Below are positions 19,670 to 43,825 of a DNA stretch of 64,000 nt, one piece after another. Below the pieces are notes generated by a model. It was not told where the DNA came from. It saw only the letters and a list, made by a program, of their open reading frames with translations, and did no database searches. The stretch is from a virus (lineage: Duplodnaviria; Heunggongvirae; Uroviricota; Caudoviricetes), in the IMG/VR virus record IMGVR_UViG_2609460125_000009. One strand, written 5' to 3'. Positions within the stretch are counted from its first letter, which is position 1, and each line of letters starts with the position of its first letter. The position numbers and the translations under genes were made by a program.

Positions 19670-20557
19670 ATGAATCTGTGGCAAATGCTTTTGGCCCGTC
19701 GTGGTCTGATGGATGTCGCTGAAGCGCATGAGCGTGGAGGCGCTGGCGGTGTAGCTGCTGATAATGAGCAGAGTACACAAGATCCTGATAAACAGGGTGA
19801 ACAAAAAGAGCAGCCGAAGGGCGATGACGAATACGCTGGCATGACTCAGGAAGAGTTACTGGCCGAACTTCGTAAAACCAAGAAAGCTGGTGCTGAACTG
19901 CTGAAGGAGAACATGAAGCGCAAAGAGAAAGAGCGCACATTGGCCGATCAGCTTGCTCAGTACGGTGATATCGATCCGGCTCGTGCTCGCCAGCTTTTAG
20001 AAGCTGAACAGGCCGCAGAAAACGCACGTCGTGAGGCGGAGCAAGCTGAACTGGAGCGTCGTGGTGAGTTCGATGCTGTTAAAAAACAGATGATCGAAGC
20101 ACACCAGGCAGAGCTGGCACAGCGTGACGAATGTTATGCAGCACTGGAAAGTGAAAACGCATCACTGAAATCTCAATTAGTCGAGATGACCGTGGGCGCT
20201 TCCTTCAGTAACTCTCTCTTCCTACGTGACAAAGTTCTGATGACCCCGGCAAAAGCCCGCGTGATCTACGGTTCTCATTTTGAAGTGGGTGAAGACGGTA
20301 GCGTAGTGGGTTATGACAAACCGGCAGGTCACAAAGAACGAGCTGTTCTGGTTGACGGTGAAGGTAAGCCGTTGCCGTTTGAATCCGCGATTGAACGCAT
20401 TGTGCGGGCAGATCCGGAAGCTGACGCATTGATGCGTAGCGAAGCCAAGCAGGGTGTAGGCTCACATTCCAAATCGACCTACACAATATCCCAACCGAAG
20501 AACAAGTCGACTATGGATAAGTTGGCCTCCGGTCTGGGGAAAATTGGACTTAAGTAA
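19670..20557 (+). CDS. scaffolding protein (putative)
   Basis: Charged, coiled-coil-like sequence between portal and capsid genes. Confidence 0.55.
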   Translation: MNLWQMLLARRGLMDVAEAHERGGAGGVAADNEQSTQDPDKQGEQKEQPKGDDEYAGMTQEELLAELRKTKKAGAELLKENMKRKEKERTLADQLAQYGDIDPARARQLLEAEQAAENARREAEQAELERRGEFDAVKKQMIEAHQAELAQRDECYAALESENASLKSQLVEMTVGASFSNSLFLRDKVLMTPAKARVIYGSHFEVGEDGSVVGYDKPAGHKERAVLVDGEGKPLPFESAIERIVRADPEADALMRSEAKQGVGSHSKSTYTISQPKNKSTMDKLASGLGKIGLK

Positions 20558-20582
20558 CATCTAAATCAAAGGGAATTGATAG

Positions 20583-21458
20583 ATGCCATTACTGCGTGAA
20601 GAAGCTGAAAAGCTGTCTAACAACGAACTTGAACAGGGTGTGATCGAAACTATCATCGATCGCGATGACCTGTTTGCCATCCTGCCTTTTATGAAAATTA
20701 ATTCAAAGGCATATCTGTACAACCGTGAAAAAACGCTGAGTGAAGCTACCTTCATCGACGTTAACGACACCATCCCTGAAGGTGCAGCAACCTTCGAAGA
20801 ATGCGTTGCGAAACTGCGTATTCTGGCTGGTGACGTAGACGTTGATAAATTCCTGGCGACCACTATGGCCGACACCAACAACCAGTTGGCTATTCAGGTT
20901 CGTCAGAAAGTTAAAGGTCTGGCTCGTGCGTTCCGTCGCAACCTGATTTTGGGTGACTCCAGCTCCAACAACAAGGCGTTTGACGGCATTCCACGCCTGA
21001 TGCACGCAGATCAGAAGATCGATATCGCCGGTGCATCTATGACTTTCTCTATGTTCGACGAACTGGTCGATGCGGTGAAAGATCTTGGTGCTGACTGCAT
21101 CATGATGCGTTCAGAGCACCTGCGTGCTTACCGTGCGCTGCTGCGTACAGTAAACGTAGGTCCGTCTGAAATCATGATGGAGAACTTCGGTCGTCCGATG
21201 CTGTGTCATAATGGCGTTCCGTTCATCATCAACGACTTCATCCCGACCGATGCTGGCAAAGCAAGCATCTACTGCCTGCATCTGTCAGAAGAGAACGGCG
21301 TTACTGGTCTGTATGGCGGCGATAACGCAGGTATCGTTGTTGAAAACATTGGTACTGTACAGAACAAAGACGCAGTACGTACCCGTGTGAAGTGGTACTG
21401 CTCTCTGGCGAATAAGCACGATAAGGCTATCGCTGCACTGACCAATGTAAAAATTTAA
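20583..21458 (+). CDS. major capsid protein (putative)
   Basis: Gene order; strong terminator immediately downstream. Confidence 0.65.
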   Translation: MPLLREEAEKLSNNELEQGVIETIIDRDDLFAILPFMKINSKAYLYNREKTLSEATFIDVNDTIPEGAATFEECVAKLRILAGDVDVDKFLATTMADTNNQLAIQVRQKVKGLARAFRRNLILGDSSSNNKAFDGIPRLMHADQKIDIAGASMTFSMFDELVDAVKDLGADCIMMRSEHLRAYRALLRTVNVGPSEIMMENFGRPMLCHNGVPFIINDFIPTDAGKASIYCLHLSEENGVTGLYGGDNAGIVVENIGTVQNKDAVRTRVKWYCSLANKHDKAIAALTNVKI

Positions 21459-33680: not shown

Positions 33681-36600
33681 TTGGACATGGAACAGTTCAA
33701 GAAGAAAAAATTACCGCTTCTTATTGCCGGTGCTGGTGGCAAGAAAAGTAAAAGCTCCAGCCGTACCCCGGTTGAAGCTGATGATACTGTCAATTCTCGT
33801 GCTATGGCAGCCATCCTCGACCTTCTTGGCGAGGGGGTTATCGGTGGCCTGGTAAATGGCGCAAAGTCGATCTTCATCGACGATTTACCGATCTTGAATG
33901 AAGATGGCTCTTCCAACTTCAGCGGTATTACATGGGATTTTCGTGACGGCTCACAAGATCAGACGCCAATGGCTGGTTTTGATTTTGTCGAAACGCCTAA
34001 GTCCGTAAATATTCAGCTTAAAAAAACACACGACGTTACGGTTTCAATCGATAACGATGAAGCTGATCGCGTTCGTGTCATCATGAAATTCCCCTCTTTA
34101 CGTAGCGTTGATAAAAGCTCTGGCGATACAAATGGCACTACGGTGAAGTACAAATTCCAGATCGCCAACGCAGACGCAACATTTTCTGATGTAGTGGCAG
34201 AAGGTGAGAAAAGCGTTGATATCACGCTAACGGCAAAGAAAACCGGCGTGTATTACCGTAGCTATGAGCTGAAACTGCCTAAGCCTGGTCGTGCATACAA
34301 GGTTAGGGTGATTCGTCTTACAGATGATAATAGTAGCCAGTACCTCTACAACGACACATGGGTTGATTCCATCGGTGAGATTGTCGACACGCCAATGAAC
34401 TACCCTAACTCTGCTCTTGTTGGCTTGAAGGTCAATTCAGAGCAGTTTGGTAGCACAATGCCTTCCCGTTCGTATTTGGTGCGCGGTATCAAAATCCGAG
34501 TACCGTCAAACTACAACGAATACACCAATACTTATGTCGGCGTATGGGACGGTACTTTTAAGCTGTTGTCTTCTTCAAACCCTGCGTGGATTCTCTACGA
34601 TTTGCTTACCAATACTCGGTATGGTCTTGGGCAATTTGTGTCGGAATCCATGATTGACCTCGGCCAGCTCTACCAGATTGGTCGATATTGTGACGAAGAG
34701 GTCGATGATGGCTTTGGGGGTAAAGAGAAACGCTTTGCAATCAATACGCAGATCACCAGTCGACAAGACGCATACCGATTAATTCAGGATATTGCCGGTG
34801 CATTCCGCGGCATGGTGTTTTGGGCTGGTGGCATGGTTAACATCATGCAGGATAGCCCATCAGATCCGGTAATGATGTTTACCAACTCCAACGTCAAAGA
34901 TGGACTGTTTACCTATAAAGGTTCTGCGCGTAAAGATCGCCCATCCGTTGCGCTCGTAACCTACAACAACAAGGAGGACGGTTATAAGCAAAACATCGAA
35001 TACGTTGAAGATCAGGACGCAATGCGCCGTTATGGTGAGCGTAAAACAGAAGTCGTAGCATTTGGATGTACAAGCCGAGGCCAGGCTCACCGAGTTGGTT
35101 TGTGGCTTTTGTATACCGCCAGAATGGAGTCGGATGTAATTACATTTACTGCCGGCTTAGACGCCTCATTTCTGATGCCTGGTGAAACCGTTCTGATTCA
35201 GAACAAATATCGTGCAGGTAAACGTAACTCCGGTCGAATTGTGGAGTTTACCAAAAACAGCATCACTCTCGATGCGCCTGTGTCGTTAGCTAAAAGTGGC
35301 AGCTTTATTCGGATATTGAATCAGGAAGGCAAAATCGTTGAACGCGATGTTCTTGAAACTGGCGAAAACATAACAAAGGTTACGTTTTCAAAAGCCCTGT
35401 CGTCAGCGGAAACGCCTGTTTTGAACGGTGTCTGGACAATTACAGAACCAGATCTCGAACCTATGCGCGTTCGCATCGTTAACATCGCGCAGGGGGAAAC
35501 GCCGGGTAGCTTTGACATCACCGCTGTTGAGAACAATCCGTCTAAATATGAGGCAATCGACAATGGCGCAACGCTGATCCCGCAGAATACGACGGTATTG
35601 GACCCAACTTACTCCAAGCCATCTAATCTGCAAATCACTGAAGGGACTTATCTCTCAAGCCCGGGCAACCTGTCAGTAAAACTGACTGCAACATGGGAAG
35701 GAAAATCTCCAGAGTATTGGATCAGTTGGCGACGTTCTGATGAAAACAATGTATCGAACTGGCAATCGGCGCGTGTAACCGAAGAGCAATACGAAATCGT
35801 TAATGTCGCGGAGAATGGACACTACGACTTCCAACTGTATGCGGTTTCATTCAACGGTAAAAAAACAGAGATTATCAGTACCGTTTATCAGGTGTTGGGC
35901 ACAATGACACCGCCGGATGCCCCAACGTCATTAACGGCCGTTGGAGACTATCGTAATGTGATACTGAATTGGGTTAATCCAGATTCGGTAGACCTTGATC
36001 ACATTAATGTTTACGCATCCCAGACCAACAATCTGGATACGGCGAAACTGATCGCAGAGTCTGCAAGCACCACCTTTACACATGCTGGTCTTGGGGATAG
36101 CGAAACGTGGTATTACTGGGTTCGAGCATCGAACAAGCGAGGTATGTTAAGCCCTCCGAACTCAAACTTGGGTACAGAGGCGACAACTCGCGATGTACTG
36201 TCGTTCCTGGCTGGCAAAATTACATCTTCCGAGCTTGGTCAGGCTCTGCTTGAGGACATCAACAGCAAAGCCTCTCAAGAAGCAGTTGACGAGTTAAATG
36301 AGCATATCAACCAGAGCGTCGAATCTTTGGAGGGGGCGGTAAACGACGTTAAGGAAGATATAGCTGAATTAGATAAGCAGTTCAGCGATAACCTCGCGGA
36401 TTTTGAAATAAAATTCAACGAGCGTAGCGATGCTTTGGAGAGCGCGCAAACCGAGCTTAAAGGTGAGGTTTCGGCAACGATCGACAAGGTCAATGAAGCG
36501 TTTGAAAAAATTGATGCTACTGATGCTGCAATTGTTGAAATCGAAAACACCGTATCTGAACACGATAAAGCTCTCGCTAATACAGTCGAGGCAATAAAGG

Positions 36601-38411
36601 CTGCAAGAGATGAAGCGGCGGCTCTTATTGCTAAGGAAAGCGAGGCTCGTGTTGAAGGCGATGCTGCAAACGCTAAACAACTGGAAGTGTTGCAGTCAAC
36701 GGTAGAGGAAAGCTCCGCTGCCGTTGAAGAAATGAAAAAGACGGTTGCAGAGGTCGATCGTGCCAGTGCAGAACTGACTACGAACATTGAGGCGTTAGCC
36801 AAAACAAATATTGACCTGGCTCTTCGTCAAGATGAAGACCAGCACAAGCAGATGGTCAATAACGCGAAGATCGCAACAACACAGAAAACCTTTGCTGATG
36901 ATATGTCTGCAATGGCCACGAAGGTTGAGGAAATTCGCGTAGAAATTGGCGAAGACATTAAGGCCAGTATTCTGGAAGAGTCCACCGCTCGTGCCGATGG
37001 CGATGAAGCGTTGGCAAAGCGTGTCACTCAGCTGCAATCTAAGTTTGAAGGAGATATCAGCGCGGCGATTAGTACAGAGCAGGAGGCTCGCACATCTGCC
37101 GATGAAGCTCTGACGACACAGATCACTCAGCTTGAGTCGAAAGTAAGCAACGATATCGTCGCAGCTATTAAGGAAGAGCAAGAAGCCCGAGCAACGGAAG
37201 ATTCGGCTCTGGCAAGCCAGATCACCCAACTTCAGGCAAAGGTTGATGATGATATTTCTGCTGCAATACGTAGTGAGCAGGAGGCCCGAGCAAGCGGGGA
37301 CTCTGCGTTAGCCAAACAAATAAACCAGCTTCAGTCAAAGGTTGACGGTGATATATCCGCGGCCATCACTCAGGAGCAGGAGGCCAGAGCAAGTGCTGAC
37401 CAGGCGCTCTCACGAGAAATTAACAGCCTGCGAGCACAAACCGGAACTGATATTGCCGCAGCGGTTGCTGTAGAGACAAAAGCAAGGACTGATGCCGATA
37501 GTGCATTGTCTACCCAGATTACGTCTCTTACAGCAAAAGCTAATGATCTCGAGGCGTCTCTTGCCAGAGAAACAACGGCTCGTGCAGATGGTGATACCGC
37601 TTTAACAAAAGAGGTTTCAAGTTTAAAAGCACAGACAGCGAAAGATATTAGTGCGGCCGTTGCAGTTGAAACGCAGGCTCGAACTGATGCTGACTCGGCG
37701 TTGTCGTCTCAGATCACCAAGCTGACCTCTCAATACAAAGAGGATATTAAAGCGGCTGTAGCAACCGAAACGAAAACGCGTACAGAGCAAGATGCTGCAT
37801 TGGCGACTCAAATCACAAACTTAGAGTCTCAAACGGCAGCCAACATTTCCGCGGCGGTAACAACTGAAACGACAGCGAGAACGCAGGCAGATAATGCTCT
37901 GAGTGGGCGAATCGATACTCTGAAAGCAGAGGTGGATGGAAATACCGCGACAATTCAACAGCAGGCAACAGCTATTGCTGATACCAACAAAAAAGTGTCA
38001 ACCGCGTGGACGTTGAAAATGGAAACTTCAACGAGCGGAGGGCAGAAGTATGTTGCCGGTATTGCGCTTGGTATTGACACCACTGGGCTATCTCAGTTTT
38101 TGGTTCAGGCGGACAGGTTTGGTTTGGTCAACTCTGTTAACGGGAAGATCACAACGCCATTTGTTATCGAAAACAGTATCGCCTATATGAATGGAGCGTA
38201 TATCAAGGATGGCACAATCACCAATGCAAAAGTAGGCGATCTGCAATCTACCAATTTTGTTAGCGGTAGATCTGGATGGCGGTTCGGCAAAAATGGAACG
38301 CTTGAGATCAACGGTAATAGCGGGGGTAATGGGCGACTGGTCATAAATGGTCAGCGGATTGACGTTTATGACGATAACAACGTCCTACGAGTAAGAATTG
38401 GCCTTCTGTAA
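33681..38411 (+). CDS. central tail fibre / host specificity protein (lambda J-like) with a long inserted repeat region
   Basis: Recalled J-like blocks (…NYPNSALVGLKVNSEQFGS…, …GVWDGTFK…, …CDEEVDDGFGG…EKRF…); 1576 aa. Confidence 0.85.
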   Translation: MDMEQFKKKKLPLLIAGAGGKKSKSSSRTPVEADDTVNSRAMAAILDLLGEGVIGGLVNGAKSIFIDDLPILNEDGSSNFSGITWDFRDGSQDQTPMAGFDFVETPKSVNIQLKKTHDVTVSIDNDEADRVRVIMKFPSLRSVDKSSGDTNGTTVKYKFQIANADATFSDVVAEGEKSVDITLTAKKTGVYYRSYELKLPKPGRAYKVRVIRLTDDNSSQYLYNDTWVDSIGEIVDTPMNYPNSALVGLKVNSEQFGSTMPSRSYLVRGIKIRVPSNYNEYTNTYVGVWDGTFKLLSSSNPAWILYDLLTNTRYGLGQFVSESMIDLGQLYQIGRYCDEEVDDGFGGKEKRFAINTQITSRQDAYRLIQDIAGAFRGMVFWAGGMVNIMQDSPSDPVMMFTNSNVKDGLFTYKGSARKDRPSVALVTYNNKEDGYKQNIEYVEDQDAMRRYGERKTEVVAFGCTSRGQAHRVGLWLLYTARMESDVITFTAGLDASFLMPGETVLIQNKYRAGKRNSGRIVEFTKNSITLDAPVSLAKSGSFIRILNQEGKIVERDVLETGENITKVTFSKALSSAETPVLNGVWTITEPDLEPMRVRIVNIAQGETPGSFDITAVENNPSKYEAIDNGATLIPQNTTVLDPTYSKPSNLQITEGTYLSSPGNLSVKLTATWEGKSPEYWISWRRSDENNVSNWQSARVTEEQYEIVNVAENGHYDFQLYAVSFNGKKTEIISTVYQVLGTMTPPDAPTSLTAVGDYRNVILNWVNPDSVDLDHINVYASQTNNLDTAKLIAESASTTFTHAGLGDSETWYYWVRASNKRGMLSPPNSNLGTEATTRDVLSFLAGKITSSELGQALLEDINSKASQEAVDELNEHINQSVESLEGAVNDVKEDIAELDKQFSDNLADFEIKFNERSDALESAQTELKGEVSATIDKVNEAFEKIDATDAAIVEIENTVSEHDKALANTVEAIKAARDEAAALIAKESEARVEGDAANAKQLEVLQSTVEESSAAVEEMKKTVAEVDRASAELTTNIEALAKTNIDLALRQDEDQHKQMVNNAKIATTQKTFADDMSAMATKVEEIRVEIGEDIKASILEESTARADGDEALAKRVTQLQSKFEGDISAAISTEQEARTSADEALTTQITQLESKVSNDIVAAIKEEQEARATEDSALASQITQLQAKVDDDISAAIRSEQEARASGDSALAKQINQLQSKVDGDISAAITQEQEARASADQALSREINSLRAQTGTDIAAAVAVETKARTDADSALSTQITSLTAKANDLEASLARETTARADGDTALTKEVSSLKAQTAKDISAAVAVETQARTDADSALSSQITKLTSQYKEDIKAAVATETKTRTEQDAALATQITNLESQTAANISAAVTTETTARTQADNALSGRIDTLKAEVDGNTATIQQQATAIADTNKKVSTAWTLKMETSTSGGQKYVAGIALGIDTTGLSQFLVQADRFGLVNSVNGKITTPFVIENSIAYMNGAYIKDGTITNAKVGDLQSTNFVSGRSGWRFGKNGTLEINGNSGGNGRLVINGQRIDVYDDNNVLRVRIGLL
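36950..37930 (+). repeat. about 15 tandem 63-bp coding repeats inside the J-like gene
   Basis: 21-aa unit of the form ITQLQSKVxxDISAAIxxEQEARxxADxALA. Confidence 0.75.
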
Positions 38412-38503: not shown

Positions 38504-41500
38504 ATGTGGTACAGGGAAGGTACTATCACATTTACACAGGGCAGCAATACTCTGGTTGGGGCAGGGACAGCCTGGAACGTAACAGCTAATGGTGTGTTGC
38601 CGGGGATGATCGTCATTGGCCCCGACAATAAGCTGTATGAGATCAAGCGCGTAACCAGTGATACGAACATTGTTCTCTCAGAACCTTATACCGGCGAAAC
38701 TCAGTCTGAAGTTCCGTGCCGAATCATTACGACCTATGAAGGCGACTTAACACAGTTTAGCGCGCGCTTTACAGCACTAATGTCGCGTATGTCGGCTGAT
38801 TCCAAGTCCATGCGCAGTTGGTTGACTGCTCTGGATGAGGTGACAATCGAGCGTGAAGACGGTACAGAAGTGACCGTTAAGCCGCTAATGCAGATCGTCA
38901 ACGAGCACAACGAAAACGTTGAGTGGTATAAAAATAACACTGACGCGATTGATGCTGCTGGCGACAAAGCTCGTGAGGCGGCGGCCAGTGCTGCCGCAGC
39001 AGCAGAAAGCGCCAATATCGCTGGAGAAAAAGCCTCTCAAGCGTCTCAAAGTGCATCCGCTGCAGAGTCCTCAAAAAGCGCGGCGGCCACAAGTGCCGGT
39101 GCCGCGAAAACGTCTGAAACGAATGCTGCAGCGTCACAAAAATCTGCAGCCACTTCTGCATCCACCGCGACCACGAAGGCGTCAGAAGCTGCCACCTCAG
39201 CCCGGGATGCGGCGGCCTCAAAAGAGGCAGCGAAATCATCAGAAACGAGCGCAGCCTCGAGCGCCAGTAATGCCGCTTCCTCGGCAACGGCGGCAGGAAA
39301 TTCCGCGAAGGCGGCAAAAACGTCCGAGACGAACGCCAGGTCTTCTGAAACGGCAGCGGGACAGAGCGCCTCGGCTGCGGCAGGCTCAAAAACAGCGGCT
39401 GCGTCGTCTGCCAGTGCCGCGTCAACAAGTGCCGGGCAGGCCTCAGCCAGTGCCACCGCCGCCGGAAAATCGGCAGAAAGTGCCGCATCGTCTGCTTCAA
39501 CAGCCACAACGAAGGCTGGCGAAGCCACTGAACAGGCCAGCGCAGCAGCGAGGTCTGCTTCCGCAGCGAAGACATCCGAAACGAACGCGAAAGCGTCGGA
39601 AACCCGTGCAGAATCCTCAAAAACGGCAGCCGCATCGTCCGCCAGTTCGGCAGCGTCATCGGCATCATCTGCGTCTGCTTCAAAAGATGAGGCGACCAGA
39701 CAGGCGTCAGCAGCGAAGGGCAGCGCCACGACGGCATCCACGAAAGCAACAGAGGCGGCAGGCAGTGCGACGGCAGCATCTCAGAGCAAAACTGCTGCTG
39801 AATCCGCTGCGACCCGTGCGGAAGCTGCTGCTGATCGTGCTGAAGAGATTGCCGGTGCAGTTGCGATGGAAGACGCAAGCCTTACAACTAAAGGTGTTGT
39901 GAAACTTAGCAGTGCTGTCGACAGCACCAGTGAATCGCTGGCCGCAACGCCAAAAGCAGTTAAAGTAGTCAATGACAATGCGAACAGCAGGGTGCCATCT
40001 AACCGAAAAATTAACGGGAAAGCACTGACTGCGGATATCACATTAACGCCGAAAGATATTGGTACTTTAAATTCAATAACGATGTCTTTCTCTGGCGGGG
40101 CCGGGTGGTTCAAACTGGCTACTGTTACAATGCCACAAGCGAGTTCCATCGTTTACATCGCATTGATTGGTGGCGCTGGTTACAACGTCGGCTCCCCACA
40201 TCAGGCAGGCATTTCAGAACTGGTTCTACGAGCAGGCAATGGAAACCCCAAAGGGATTACAGGTGCTTTGTGGAAGCGTACAGCTGTCGGATTAACGAAT
40301 TTCGCCTGGATCAACACATCCGGCGATACATATGATATTTACGTTGAGATTGGCAATTATGCGACTCGTGTAAATATCCATTGGGATTGTACTGCAAATG
40401 CGACAGTTTCTATTTATACATCGCCAACATATTCAGCTAGTAAGCCTTCCAGCGTTACCGATGGTGTTGTTTATACGATGTATAGCACACATCAGAAACC
40501 GACGCCGTTAGATATTGGAGCACTGCCAACAACCGGAGGAACAGTTTCAGGTCCGTTGTCTGTTACTGGTGGGATCACCGGAACATTAAATGGTAATGCA
40601 AGTACAGCAACGAAATTGCAGACGGCAAGATCTATCGGTGGAGTTGGTTTCGACGGTTCTGCAAATATCAACCTTCCAGGTGTAAATACTACGGGTAATC
40701 AGAACACCACTGGTAATGCTGCAACTGCTACAAAACTTCAGACGGCAAGAACTATCGGCGGCGTGAGCTTTGATGGTACTGCGAATATTAATTTGCCAGG
40801 TGTTAATACGACTGGTAATCAGAATACAACGGGCAACGCGGCTACTGCTACGAAGTTGCAGACTGCGCGTACTATCAATGGGGTGTCGTTTGACGGCTCG
40901 GCAAATATTTCCTTGTCGCCAGCAAATATAGGTTGCCCGGCATCTCCTACTGGTTGGTTAACTACAGGAAGTAATGGCGGAGCAATAACAACAGCACAGT
41001 TAGTGACGTTATTGCAAAATAATGGAGCATTTAACACAAAGTCATGGATTGCTCGATGTGCTTGGGCCTATGCCAATAGTGCAACCATACCAAATAGTGA
41101 AACTGGTTGTGGCGTTATTCCATTGGCAGGAGCTGTTATAGAGGTATTTAATAACGGTAGTAGCTCAAACAATTATACGATCCGTATAACAACGGCCACA
41201 ACGACGAGTGTCTCTGGTGCTCTCACTAATGCGGAGTTTATCTATGTATTTAATGGCACAGATTATTCTCCGGGATGGCGAAGAGTATATAACACGAAAA
41301 ACAAACCAACAGCCTCTGATGTCGGTGCATTACCTCTTACCGGTGGTACATTATCTGGAGGTTTGACATCTTCTGGCGAGATCATTTCAAAATATGCAAA
41401 TGGTTTCCGCATTGCTTACGGTAGCTTTGGGTTCTTTATCCGTAATGATGGATCGAACACATATTTCATGCTAACAGCATCAGGAGACACATTAGGTTCA

Positions 41501-42661
41501 TGGAACGGTTTGCGACCAATTACAATTAATAATACCAGCGGTGCTGTATCAATTGGTAATGGACTAAATGTGACTGGTGGCGTAAATGGTAGTTTGAACG
41601 GTAATGCTTCAACAGCTACGAAGTTGCAAACAGCGAGAAACATCAATGGTGTTAAGTTTGATGGCTCAGGCGATATCAACATTAATACATTGGTATCTCG
41701 TGGCCGAGTTACGGCGTTAAGCGGCTCTACTCAAGGCACTGCTGGCATTCAAATGTACGAGGCGTACAACAATAGCTACCCGACCACGTATGGCAACGTA
41801 TTGCACATGAAAGGTGCGAGTGCTGCTGGTGAGGGCGAGTTGCTTATTGGCTGGAGTGGTACGAGCGGTGCACATGCGCCAGTTTTCATTCGCTCACGAA
41901 GAGATACCACAGATGCGGCATGGTCAGCGTGGGCGCAGGTATATACTGCTAAGGATTCAATCCCTGGTGTGAATACAACCGGTAATCAGAATACTACTGG
42001 TAATGCCGCAACAGCCACAAAATTGCAGACAGCAAGGAAAATTGCTGGTGTGGCGTTTGATGGCTCTGCCGATATTACTTTGACTGCGGCTAACCTTAAT
42101 GCTTATACGAAAACAGAGGTAACAAACCTTCTAAGTTCCTATGCAAGCAGATCATCACTGACAGGCTATAGTGGCAACCTGGATATTATTGCTGAAACAC
42201 TGGTTGTCAAATCAGGCGGTAGTGGAGGGTTTGCTATATGGGATATTGGCACAACTACTAGCGGTGCCAATATGTACATTGATCCAAACCCTGGTATCAA
42301 TACAGTTTGGCGTTCAACATCTTCAAGGCGCTATAAAAAGGATATTGAAACATTACAAGATCGATATGCTGATGAACTTTTGTCATTAAGACCTGTTTGG
42401 TATCGTTCAATTTGTCGAGGTGACCGAAAGGATTGGGGGTATTACGGCCTTATTGCTGAAGAGGTTGGTGAGATTGCCCCGCAATATGTCCATTGGCGTG
42501 AACCAACAAATAATGATTCTCCAGAAGATATTTCCTCAAATGGTATGGTCGCTGAAGGGGTGATGTATGAGCGTTTGGTTGTACCACTCATTCATCATAT
42601 TCAGCAATTGACCAAAAGGGTTGAGGAGCTTGAAACGAAGTTAAATTCACCTAAAGAATAA
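38504..42661 (+). CDS. side tail fibre with C-terminal intramolecular chaperone (peptidase S74-like) domain
   Basis: Ala/Ser-rich low-complexity region, five GNAATATKLQTAR-containing repeats, C-terminal chaperone-like block (…YGLIAEEV…). Confidence 0.8.
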   Translation: MWYREGTITFTQGSNTLVGAGTAWNVTANGVLPGMIVIGPDNKLYEIKRVTSDTNIVLSEPYTGETQSEVPCRIITTYEGDLTQFSARFTALMSRMSADSKSMRSWLTALDEVTIEREDGTEVTVKPLMQIVNEHNENVEWYKNNTDAIDAAGDKAREAAASAAAAAESANIAGEKASQASQSASAAESSKSAAATSAGAAKTSETNAAASQKSAATSASTATTKASEAATSARDAAASKEAAKSSETSAASSASNAASSATAAGNSAKAAKTSETNARSSETAAGQSASAAAGSKTAAASSASAASTSAGQASASATAAGKSAESAASSASTATTKAGEATEQASAAARSASAAKTSETNAKASETRAESSKTAAASSASSAASSASSASASKDEATRQASAAKGSATTASTKATEAAGSATAASQSKTAAESAATRAEAAADRAEEIAGAVAMEDASLTTKGVVKLSSAVDSTSESLAATPKAVKVVNDNANSRVPSNRKINGKALTADITLTPKDIGTLNSITMSFSGGAGWFKLATVTMPQASSIVYIALIGGAGYNVGSPHQAGISELVLRAGNGNPKGITGALWKRTAVGLTNFAWINTSGDTYDIYVEIGNYATRVNIHWDCTANATVSIYTSPTYSASKPSSVTDGVVYTMYSTHQKPTPLDIGALPTTGGTVSGPLSVTGGITGTLNGNASTATKLQTARSIGGVGFDGSANINLPGVNTTGNQNTTGNAATATKLQTARTIGGVSFDGTANINLPGVNTTGNQNTTGNAATATKLQTARTINGVSFDGSANISLSPANIGCPASPTGWLTTGSNGGAITTAQLVTLLQNNGAFNTKSWIARCAWAYANSATIPNSETGCGVIPLAGAVIEVFNNGSSSNNYTIRITTATTTSVSGALTNAEFIYVFNGTDYSPGWRRVYNTKNKPTASDVGALPLTGGTLSGGLTSSGEIISKYANGFRIAYGSFGFFIRNDGSNTYFMLTASGDTLGSWNGLRPITINNTSGAVSIGNGLNVTGGVNGSLNGNASTATKLQTARNINGVKFDGSGDININTLVSRGRVTALSGSTQGTAGIQMYEAYNNSYPTTYGNVLHMKGASAAGEGELLIGWSGTSGAHAPVFIRSRRDTTDAAWSAWAQVYTAKDSIPGVNTTGNQNTTGNAATATKLQTARKIAGVAFDGSADITLTAANLNAYTKTEVTNLLSSYASRSSLTGYSGNLDIIAETLVVKSGGSGGFAIWDIGTTTSGANMYIDPNPGINTVWRSTSSRRYKKDIETLQDRYADELLSLRPVWYRSICRGDRKDWGYYGLIAEEVGEIAPQYVHWREPTNNDSPEDISSNGMVAEGVMYERLVVPLIHHIQQLTKRVEELETKLNSPKE

Positions 42662-42721
42662 ACAACTTCAATCGGGGCTGGAACTAAACCAGCCCCTGCT
42701 TAAAAGTATAAGGATATATTT

Positions 42722-42976
42722 ATGAGCTATGGTGCACAGGTATGGTCGCCATCAAGACAGGAGATGGTCGATGCGTTGGCCCCTGTTTATTACCTCGATT
42801 ATTTTACTCCCTCTGGTTCTGGAAGTAGAACATATGAGGTTGAGGCGGGATTGGGAATCGACTATTACATAATGGACGTAACCAATGGGAAATACACAAG
42901 TCTTACGGTTTCTGGAAATACCATTTCATGGTCTGGAGCTAGTGGCAATTTAAACATATTGGTTTTTCAAAAATAA
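42722..42976 (+). CDS. hypothetical protein downstream of the tail fibre
   Basis: 84-aa ORF. Confidence 0.4.
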   Translation: MSYGAQVWSPSRQEMVDALAPVYYLDYFTPSGSGSRTYEVEAGLGIDYYIMDVTNGKYTSLTVSGNTISWSGASGNLNILVFQK

Positions 42977-43584
42977 TGTACGGAAGCAAGATATATCGAT
43001 CTGACGGGAAGGTCTGGATGTCTCCTTCTTTGTCTCCTATCGTCTTTCAGAGAAAGCAGGTTGTTTCTTTGTCTGGCGGGACAGAGTTTAACACCCAAAT
43101 ATCTCCAGATCGTTCACCGATGATTTTTGTTGCCTATTCGAAAGCTGTTTCATTAATAGCCAACAGAATAGTGCGTAACAACCAGGTGATTTACAGTTTC
43201 GGAGGTCAGGGTAGCGACTCTAGTGCCACGATATACGTATTTTCGAAAGGTATAGCCAAAAAAGAAACTTGGGGCATGAGTTTTTTCAATGCACAAGGGG
43301 AGGAAATCTATAATACGGCAAATATCCCACTTTCATTTACCTTTCTTAATAATACGGAGTGGAACAGCTCTGGAGGGCATGTTTTTGATTACCCACCAGC
43401 GATAATCCCAACATATGCGAATGTGTTCGCTGTTCCAGTACCGGGCGGAGCCATGACAATGGTTTATGGATATGCGGCATATGGAAATACTGTTAGCTCG
43501 ATATTCGTAAACCAACTTAATGGCGGCCATAGTTTTAGCGTAAATGGCAGAGTACCGGTAATAAATAGAAATCTGTATAACTGA
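42976..43584 (+). CDS. hypothetical protein
   Basis: 202-aa ORF overlapping the upstream stop. Confidence 0.45.
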   Translation: MYGSKIYRSDGKVWMSPSLSPIVFQRKQVVSLSGGTEFNTQISPDRSPMIFVAYSKAVSLIANRIVRNNQVIYSFGGQGSDSSATIYVFSKGIAKKETWGMSFFNAQGEEIYNTANIPLSFTFLNNTEWNSSGGHVFDYPPAIIPTYANVFAVPVPGGAMTMVYGYAAYGNTVSSIFVNQLNGGHSFSVNGRVPVINRNLYN

Positions 43585-43591
43585 TGAGTAA

Positions 43592-43825
43592 ATGATGAAA
43601 AGATTATTTCTAACAATAGCTGTTGTTCTCTCTCTTACTGGCTGCCAGAAATTGCCGACACCTATATGTTACGGTGAGGCTATCATTGGTGGACAGGAGA
43701 CAGTCATACCCATATATGCTGTTAAAAAAGTGAACGACTATACCTTATACAAAGCGGGTAGCATCTATAACTGGCGATGGGTAGGAGTAGGTGCTTTCTC
43801 ATCAGTCCGTTGCAATGTTGAATGA
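43592..43825 (+). CDS. small lipoprotein, candidate superinfection-exclusion protein
   Basis: Signal peptide with lipobox LTGC; 77 aa; located after the tail fibre genes. Confidence 0.55.
   Translation: MMKRLFLTIAVVLSLTGCQKLPTPICYGEAIIGGQETVIPIYAVKKVNDYTLYKAGSIYNWRWVGVGAFSSVRCNVE

Follow-up and report, generated by a model that had tools for sequence, protein, structure and literature searches.

A modular side tail fibre with a probable alanine-cored stalk and a predicted self-removing chaperone in an SSU5-like phage-plasmid of Escherichia coli

The window analysed here is a 64,000-nucleotide stretch of caudoviricete DNA, IMG/VR record IMGVR_UViG_2609460125_000009, and the subject of this report is one open reading frame (ORF) within it, 38504-42661(+), which starts with ATG and encodes a precursor of 1385 amino acids (aa) and 141.4 kDa. 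The gene very probably codes for the side fibre on a lambda-type siphovirus tail, in which an attachment domain is followed by a coiled-coil stalk, a hinge, a series of connector-joined beads, a tip, and an S74-type chaperone that is predicted to remove itself. Judged by sequence comparison, the element that carries the gene is a ~110-kb SSU5-like phage-plasmid of E. coli with a lambda-type tail module.

The gene begins 92 nucleotides (nt) past the end (38411) of the gene for the J-type central fibre, a protein of 1576 aa with profile matches to the Phage_Tail_Tip, FNIII-A_GpJ, and Phage-tail_3 domains. The order of the locus is tape measure-M-L-K-I-J-fibre-two small genes-holin-endolysin, and in Cyrano, SSU5, and lambda the fibre gene likewise stands directly after J. 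The product matches PHROG family 3299 from end to end and has homologies to lambda Stf, the F2-pyocin fibre, Mu S, and gp34, which upholds the proposal of an earlier note on this sequence that the gene encodes a side tail fibre. An identical copy (100%) is found in the E. coli plasmid NZ_CP027358.1 (110 kb), at least 80% of the gene is covered in 81 plasmids, and its first 3640 nt are 96.7% identical to phage Cyrano. Cyrano is pLF82, an SSU5-like phage-plasmid that is inducible and produces siphovirus virions. It is on the basis of the plasmid and Cyrano identities, the gene order, and the PHROG 3299 match that both the side-tail-fibre identity of the gene and the SSU5-like membership of the element are assigned.

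Docking of the fibre on the tail tip would be the task of the first ~145 residues. Of these, aa 2-107 align with the N-terminal part of a side fibre whose structure has been solved, that of the F2 pyocin (25ve_A, E 3.7e-4); pyocins of the F type are tails that resemble the lambda tail. The N-terminus is also almost identical to that of the SSU5 fibre, and the domain is 98-99% conserved in plasmid copies in which downstream modules have been replaced. This conservation matches what is expected of a part that would have to fit the tail tip.

The attachment domain is followed by a segment of about 300 aa that the earlier note had described as a low-complexity region rich in Ala, Ser, and Thr. The composition is as described, since these three residues make up 68-78% of each 50-aa block between aa 151 and 450 (nt ~38954-39853) compared with 9-42% elsewhere in the protein, but the sense of disorder that the wording carries did not hold. 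From aa 146 to aa 455 the sequence keeps one unbroken heptad register, in which 43 of the 44 heptads have Ala at one and the same position and other positions have Ser in 33 of 44 and Ala in 30 of 44. The periodicity power of Ala at 3.5 residues is 35.2, whereas 200 shuffled sequences gave 5.3 on average and 8.9 at most, so the pattern is not due to chance. Together with the motif that follows it, the segment is 55-72% identical to aa 205-394 of lambda orf-401, the N-terminal half of Stf. In cryogenic electron microscopy and tomography of Ur-lambda, Stf residues 102-393 were assigned to a proximal coiled coil and residues 394-422 to a hinge in a trimeric fibre (PMC12617516). We infer that aa 146-455 form a trimeric coiled-coil stalk with an Ala core, which at ~0.148 nm for each of its 310 residues would be ~46 nm long.

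The alternative, an intrinsically disordered spacer, can point to the Ala, Ser, and Thr content and to the lack of any Pfam or NCBIfam domain in the segment. It is very hard to reconcile with a strict register over 44 heptads and with homology to a stretch for which the Ur-lambda model has a trimeric coiled coil. The insertions and deletions point the same way, as they amount to 21 residues relative to lambda and 7 relative to SSU5, in both cases whole heptads, and one plasmid copy, in which nt identity over the coiled coil is down to 75%, still has exactly 310 residues in this segment. We therefore regard a disordered spacer as highly improbable and retain the coiled-coil stalk. Lambdoid prophage stf genes share 88-95% nt identity with the coiled-coil segment alone, which indicates recent exchange of the segment between phage-plasmids and integrated lambdoid phages.

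At the other end of the protein, the chaperone-like C-terminus suggested by the earlier note is supported by a profile match, by a modelled fold, and by conservation. Peptidase_S74 (PF13884) matches aa 1273-1329 with 27.2 bits for the whole protein and 30.5 bits for the fragment, above the Pfam gathering cut-off of 22 bits, so the refuting condition set in the earlier note, a lack of matches to chaperone profiles, did not arise. In the AlphaFold2 monomer model aa ~1277-1385 are predicted with confidence (predicted local distance difference test, pLDDT, 77-93) and have the mixed alpha/beta fold of this family, which ends in a long helix (aa 1355-1381 here), and the 11 best Foldseek matches in the PDB are all intramolecular chaperones, including 7dc3 (E 1e-4), 3gud, and 3gw6 (MyRF ICA, GA-1, K1F). 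The nearest solved structure by sequence is a chain of a T5-type L-shaped fibre (8hqz_d), a weak match with an E value of 0.015. In an alignment of 26 homologues that are 27-60% identical to the query, S1271, T1272, S1273, Y1277, and K1278 are invariant, including the Ser/Lys dyad. The motif T1272-S1273-S-R-R-Y-K1278 has the same T-S-x4-K spacing as T1263-S1264...K1269 of T5 pb1, in which the S1264A substitution blocks autoproteolysis and Lys1269 activates the serine (PMC4690869).

Based on the motif, the model, and the analogy with T5, the C-terminal chaperone most likely cuts itself off between T1272 and S1273. In the proposed mechanism three chains would assemble in parallel, and the last 113 residues, which are of S74 type, would trimerise and template the folding of an intertwined tip. 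Self-cleavage at T1272-S1273, with S1273 activated by K1278, would then leave a mature chain of ~128 kDa (128.2) and free a fragment of 13.3 kDa. A chaperone within the chain would make a separate Tfa-type chaperone unnecessary, and profile matches of the downstream genes include no Tfa-like or Gp38-like gene after the fibre gene, which is consistent with this arrangement. The tip that would remain, and that may bind the receptor, shares TT and AN motifs with standalone homologues of ~230 aa in ~50-kb coliphages, and tip plus chaperone also occur together as a standalone protein of ~231 aa in ~50-kb coliphages and lambdoid phages.

Several observations count against parts of this picture. In the monomer model the tip (aa 1178-1272) is of low confidence (pLDDT below 50), and counterparts of the Arg, from a neighbouring chain, and the Asp that make up the oxyanion hole in T5 and K1F were not located. 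A BLASTP comparison of the N-terminal domain with lambda StfN gave no similarity. IS elements interrupt the fibre gene in some plasmids, and published work describes at least one E. coli SSU5-like phage-plasmid that is not inducible. The oxyanion-hole residues bear on the possibility that the S74 domain folds the tip yet stays in place as a distal cap, or that cleavage is inefficient. Cleavage is itself predicted from conserved residues and fold, a Pfam score of 27-30 bits is modest, and the catalytic Ser is followed by Ser and not by the more usual Asp, all of which, with the oxyanion-hole residues, leave room for a cap. However, none of the 26 homologues, even at 27% identity, departs from Thr-Ser with Lys at +5, as would be expected of catalysis that selection maintains, and the geometry is that of T5 pb1, where the Ser is needed for cleavage. 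A retained cap is thus unlikely, and removal of the chaperone remains the preferred reading.

The last two observations bear on whether the gene is a decaying relic of a defective plasmid prophage from which a functional fibre is no longer made. Either IS2 (in four ~100.5-kb plasmids) or an IS66-family element splits the gene in NZ_CP025870.1, NZ_CP025894.1, NZ_CP025868.1, NZ_CP025883.1, and CP091407.1, so the side fibre has been inactivated in some copies of the phage-plasmid. With one relative that is not inducible, a functional fibre in the present element cannot be taken for granted. Against decay, the 1385-aa ORF is uninterrupted in the window and in many plasmids, and in three further plasmids it measures exactly 4158 nt even where modules have been replaced. 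Substitutions concentrate at third codon positions, which indicates purifying selection, the surrounding tail and lysis module is whole, and the relative Cyrano makes virions. A relic is accordingly quite improbable, and we continue to regard the gene as probably functional.

The distal half of the fibre is a chain of unrelated globular beta domains, or beads (a beta sandwich, a Mu/P1 S-type domain, a gp34-type domain, and a small swappable domain) punctuated by five connectors and followed by the tip. The connectors correspond to the five repeats of ~40 aa that the earlier note had picked out, and their GNA[AS]TATKLQTAR cores lie at aa 697-709, 737-749, 777-789, 1033-1045, and 1166-1178 (nt 40592-42037). 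Several PHROG tail-fibre profiles match the protein in exactly five stretches as well. Two subtypes can be distinguished, as units 2, 3, and 5 begin with GVNTTGNQNTT and units 1 and 4 with xVTGGxxGxLN. Units 1-3 are 60-90% identical in protein but only 38-45% identical at third codon positions, and for all five the values are 55-90% and 33-53%, respectively, with an overall DNA identity of 63-78%. This combination points to old duplications that have been held by selection at the level of the protein.

In the search against tail fibre repeat profiles that the earlier note had proposed as a check, PF03406 (Phage_fiber_2) misses all five units and matches the protein once, at another motif (aa 459-499). 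The identification of the repeats with this family was also rejected on the segment of units 1-3, which has no relevant Pfam hit at E values up to 5. No NCBIfam model matches the units, and no Pfam family covers them even in homologues with 9-12 copies. An exhaustive search nevertheless found the unit in 5,901 representatives of 50%-identity clusters; for 587 of these the E value was <=1e-30, and single proteins have as many as 12 copies. One homologue of 2342 aa with nine connector units also ends in Peptidase_S74. The sole structural lead is the C-terminal stalk of phage L Dec, for which the match is not significant (E 0.18), and no paper on the repeat peptide emerged from a literature search.

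The connectors coincide with the recombination breakpoints relative to Cyrano and SSU5. The collinearity with Cyrano breaks at the end of unit 4, returns across unit 5, and is lost again within the tip (Table 1); the Cyrano fibre has no S74 match. The domain at aa 1062-1148 is 72% identical to aa 677-765 of the SSU5 fibre, where it is also flanked by connectors but stands upstream of the Mu-S-like domain. Replacement is not confined to the distal end, as in one plasmid only the coiled coil diverges (75%) and in another, pECAZ162_2, the S-type domain alone drops to 83% nt identity between flanks of 94-99%. The view that fibre genes recombine at their conserved motifs is well established (Tetart, Desplats and Krisch 1998, as summarised in PMC10879196; also PMC10684548), and the present gene is a clear example of it that introduces no new principle. 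We tentatively propose that the 40-aa GNAxTATKLQTAR...FDGSxxI unit is a widespread connector that serves both as a joint between trimeric beads and as a landing pad for recombination, permitting domains to be permuted and replaced across phage-plasmids, lambdoid prophages, and Mu/P1/T4-type fibres. In the favoured reading the connectors also mark the sites at which phage-plasmids have exchanged cassettes with lambdoid phages, Mu/P1-type phages, and ~50-kb coliphages, and thereby retargeted the fibre. A tip that switches by inversion, as in Mu and P1, was considered and rejected: the sole inverted pairs between positions 40000 and 46500 are two that are short and imperfect (19-20 nt, 80-84%), and there is no invertase among the neighbouring genes.

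Table 1. Features of the side tail fibre gene, the ORFs that overlap it, and the segments of its comparison with Cyrano, in window coordinates.
Feature	Residues (aa)	Nucleotides	Strand	Basis or remark
Side tail fibre gene, complete	1-1385	38504..42661	+	phrog_3299 match end to end (1-1385 of 1385), plasmid identity, position after J
Putative N-terminal tail-attachment domain	1-145	38504..38938	+	F2-pyocin match, SSU5 near-identity, conservation
Ala/Ser-rich coiled-coil stalk, 44 uninterrupted heptads	146-455	38939..39868	+	heptad analysis, lambda Stf homology
Single Phage_fiber_2 (PF03406) at lambda Stf hinge position	459-499	39878..40000	+	E 5.2e-19, 68 bits
Beta-sandwich domain	~519-660	40058..40483	+	
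Connector units 1-3, tandem, 40 aa each	686-725, 726-765, 766-805	40559..40918	+	120-nt period
Mu/P1 S-type globular domain	806-945 (match about 790-950)	40919..41338	+	Mu S/S' 8ju3_A
T4 gp34-type trimerisation domain	907-1008 (PDB matches about 907-1033)	41222..41527	+	PF21446 Gp34_trimer, E 5.9e-29
Connector unit 4	1022-1061	41567..41686	+	dispersed; Cyrano collinearity ends at its end
Swappable globular domain	1062-1154	41687..41965	+	replaced in Cyrano, permuted in SSU5
Connector unit 5	1155-1194	41966..42085	+	dispersed; Cyrano homology resumes across unit
Distal tip retained on predicted mature fibre, 78 residues	1195-1272	42086..42319	+	replaced in Cyrano from nt 42144
Intramolecular chaperone/Peptidase_S74, 13.3 kDa, predicted scissile bond T1272-S1273	1273-1385	42320..42658	+	PF13884
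Artefactual antisense ORFs, 326 aa and 231 aa		38898..39878, 39046-39741	-	within heptad segment, no Pfam above threshold
Artefactual +1-frame ORF, 327 aa		38919..39902	+	Arg/Gln/Pro-rich, no Pfam match
Versus Cyrano, to end of unit 4		up to 41685		collinear, 97.5% identity
Versus Cyrano, after unit 4	1062-1142	41686-41929		lost, unrelated sequence in place
Versus Cyrano, spanning unit 5		41930-42143		homology back, 88.8%
Versus Cyrano, tip, chaperone, and two small genes		42144-43823		lost (replaced)
Versus Cyrano, holin onward		from 43824		homology back, 99%

Between the stalk and the connectors, the single Phage_fiber_2 motif aligns to residues 105-156 of Mu gpS and ~355-394 of lambda Stf and is absent from the SSU5 fibre. 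The beta sandwich that follows is a possible lateral glycan-binding bead. The S-type domain aligns to residues 186-334 of Mu S/S' (8ju3_A; E 6e-37 for the whole protein), and the gp34-type domain has PDB matches to 4uxe, 5nxf, and 5yvq. Sequence searches of the PDB with aa 498-699 and aa 1032-1179 gave no match. A second short connector, Y[SN]T..KPT..D[IV]GALP.TGGT, occurs in two copies and is common to otherwise unrelated beads. The possibility that the beads are internal duplicates of one another was rejected, as only the short KPT..DxGALP.TGGT connector is shared.

Among known systems, T5 pb1 (1396 aa; 4UW7/4UW8; PMC4690869) is likewise a long siphovirus side fibre, of nearly the same length, with a C-terminal S74 chaperone of ~113-133 residues, a Thr-Ser bond with a Lys five residues on, and no separate assembly chaperone. 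Outside the chaperone, however, there is no detectable similarity, and the receptor-binding domain of pb1, the "bullet" (aa 970-1263), contrasts with a tip of 78 residues here. The Stf of lambda and Ur-lambda (PMC12617516) is also encoded downstream of J and shares the coiled coil and the Phage_fiber_2 hinge at 55-72% identity, but it has a gp37-like tip and needs a separate Tfa, whereas the fibre described here has its chaperone in the chain and a distal half that is unrelated, with no similarity to lambda orf-314. Mu gpS/P1 S and the T4 gp34 shafts (5yvq, 8ju3, 4uxe) match aa 790-950 and 907-1033 with E values of 1e-21 to 6e-37; these are myovirus fibres, and Mu and P1 switch tips by an invertible segment.

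SSU5_021 of Salmonella phage SSU5, the prototype of the phage-plasmid group, shares the locus, the N-terminus, and 46% identity over 1130 residues overall. The two fibres draw on the same module families (coiled coil, beta sandwich, connectors, Mu-S-like, gp34-like, and S74), but the order of the domains is permuted, with aa 1062-1148 here corresponding to aa 677-765 there, and SSU5 is without the Phage_fiber_2 hinge. The S74 domain of SSU5_021 (aa 1158-1212, E 1e-10) is only 23% identical to that described here. SSU5 (JQ965645) additionally has a Gp38_N-type adhesin gene downstream, beside the in-chain S74 domain, and a Gp38 homologue is absent here. The SSU5 fibre with its Gp38-type gene resembles the T2-type arrangement, which combines processing of gp37 with a gp38 at the tip.

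The Ala/Ser-rich segment also affects how the region is annotated. As the earlier note had stated, it yields long artefactual ORFs on both strands, three of which were found. Substitutions fall mainly on the third codon position of the fibre frame, both relative to a lambdoid homologue (22/15/63 at positions 1/2/3, n=100) and relative to Cyrano (21/11/80, n=112). The lack of family matches and this bias rule out the overlapping ORFs as real genes; one sub-threshold Pfam hit (23.1 bits, cut-off 27), in an Ala/Asp-rich stretch, is compositional. The fibre frame has T at only 2% of second codon positions, and stop codons therefore cannot arise in the +1 frame.

Similar problems are seen in public annotations. 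In RefSeq/PLSDB the coding sequence (CDS) of the fibre starts at aa 455 or aa 149 in NZ_CP019013.1, NZ_CP050499.1, and NZ_CP080257.1 despite an intact 1385-aa ORF. No CDS is listed at the fibre gene of NZ_CP027358.1, the plasmid with the identical copy; the PLSDB gene table is incomplete. The annotation of lambda (NC_001416) retains the antisense orf206b, 20147-20767(-), in the coiled-coil part of orf-401, and this is the same kind of artefact as the antisense ORFs in the window. From the misplaced starts and the retained orf206b it appears that the Ala/Ser heptad segment misleads gene callers. The stf of the lambdoid phage PhiR30_1 (PV340558.1) has been annotated as a row of three CDSs, all named "side tail fiber protein", with the coiled-coil part followed by a gap, which may reflect a frameshift as in laboratory lambda or a split made in annotation.

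The neighbouring genes show some further features. The J product, encoded at 33681-38411(+), is longer than its counterpart in lambda (1576 compared with 1132 aa) and contains at aa ~1113-1420 (nt ~37017-37940) about 9-10 tandem 33-residue repeats, DISAAIxxEQEARxxADxALxxQIxxLxxK. Their hydrophobic periodicity of 3.65 is hendecad-like and indicates another type of coiled coil than the heptads of the fibre. Tandem Repeats Finder (TRF) reports nothing for these repeats at the DNA level, and the segment gives rise to antisense ORFs at 36275-36802 and 36795-37229. The two small genes after the fibre gene, 42722-42976(+) (84 aa, phrog_557) and 42976-43584(+) (202 aa, phrog_425), carry the labels "outer membrane" and "membrane associated" protein, respectively. 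Neither product has a signal peptide or transmembrane segment apparent by eye, and neither has a Pfam or NCBIfam match. Homologues lie behind the fibre gene in SSU5 (75% identity), and others are present in ~50-kb coliphages (29%) and in Stx phages (24%), whereas Cyrano is without both genes. The idea that the two genes form a cassette tied to the S74 tip is unsupported, as SSU5 has both behind a different, Gp38-adhesin tip arrangement and a distance of ~3.7 kb separates them from the tip homologue in ~50-kb coliphages.

All parts of this fibre can be placed in known tail-fibre families, and databases already include the protein, though with inconsistent annotation. Only three points are mildly new: the strict register over 44 heptads, the absence from Pfam and NCBIfam of a model for so common a connector, and the clear permutation of domains at connectors. 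The general understanding of tail fibres is unchanged, and the findings are of modest practical use. In automated annotation the gene is often given a wrong start, either at the coiled-coil segment or inside it, and the predicted maturation site is now pinpointed, which is useful for expressing or engineering the fibre. For a lineage of phage-plasmids that is common in clinical E. coli, the analysis provides a residue-level module map of the host-recognition fibre, in which one conserved connector marks the boundaries of the cassettes.

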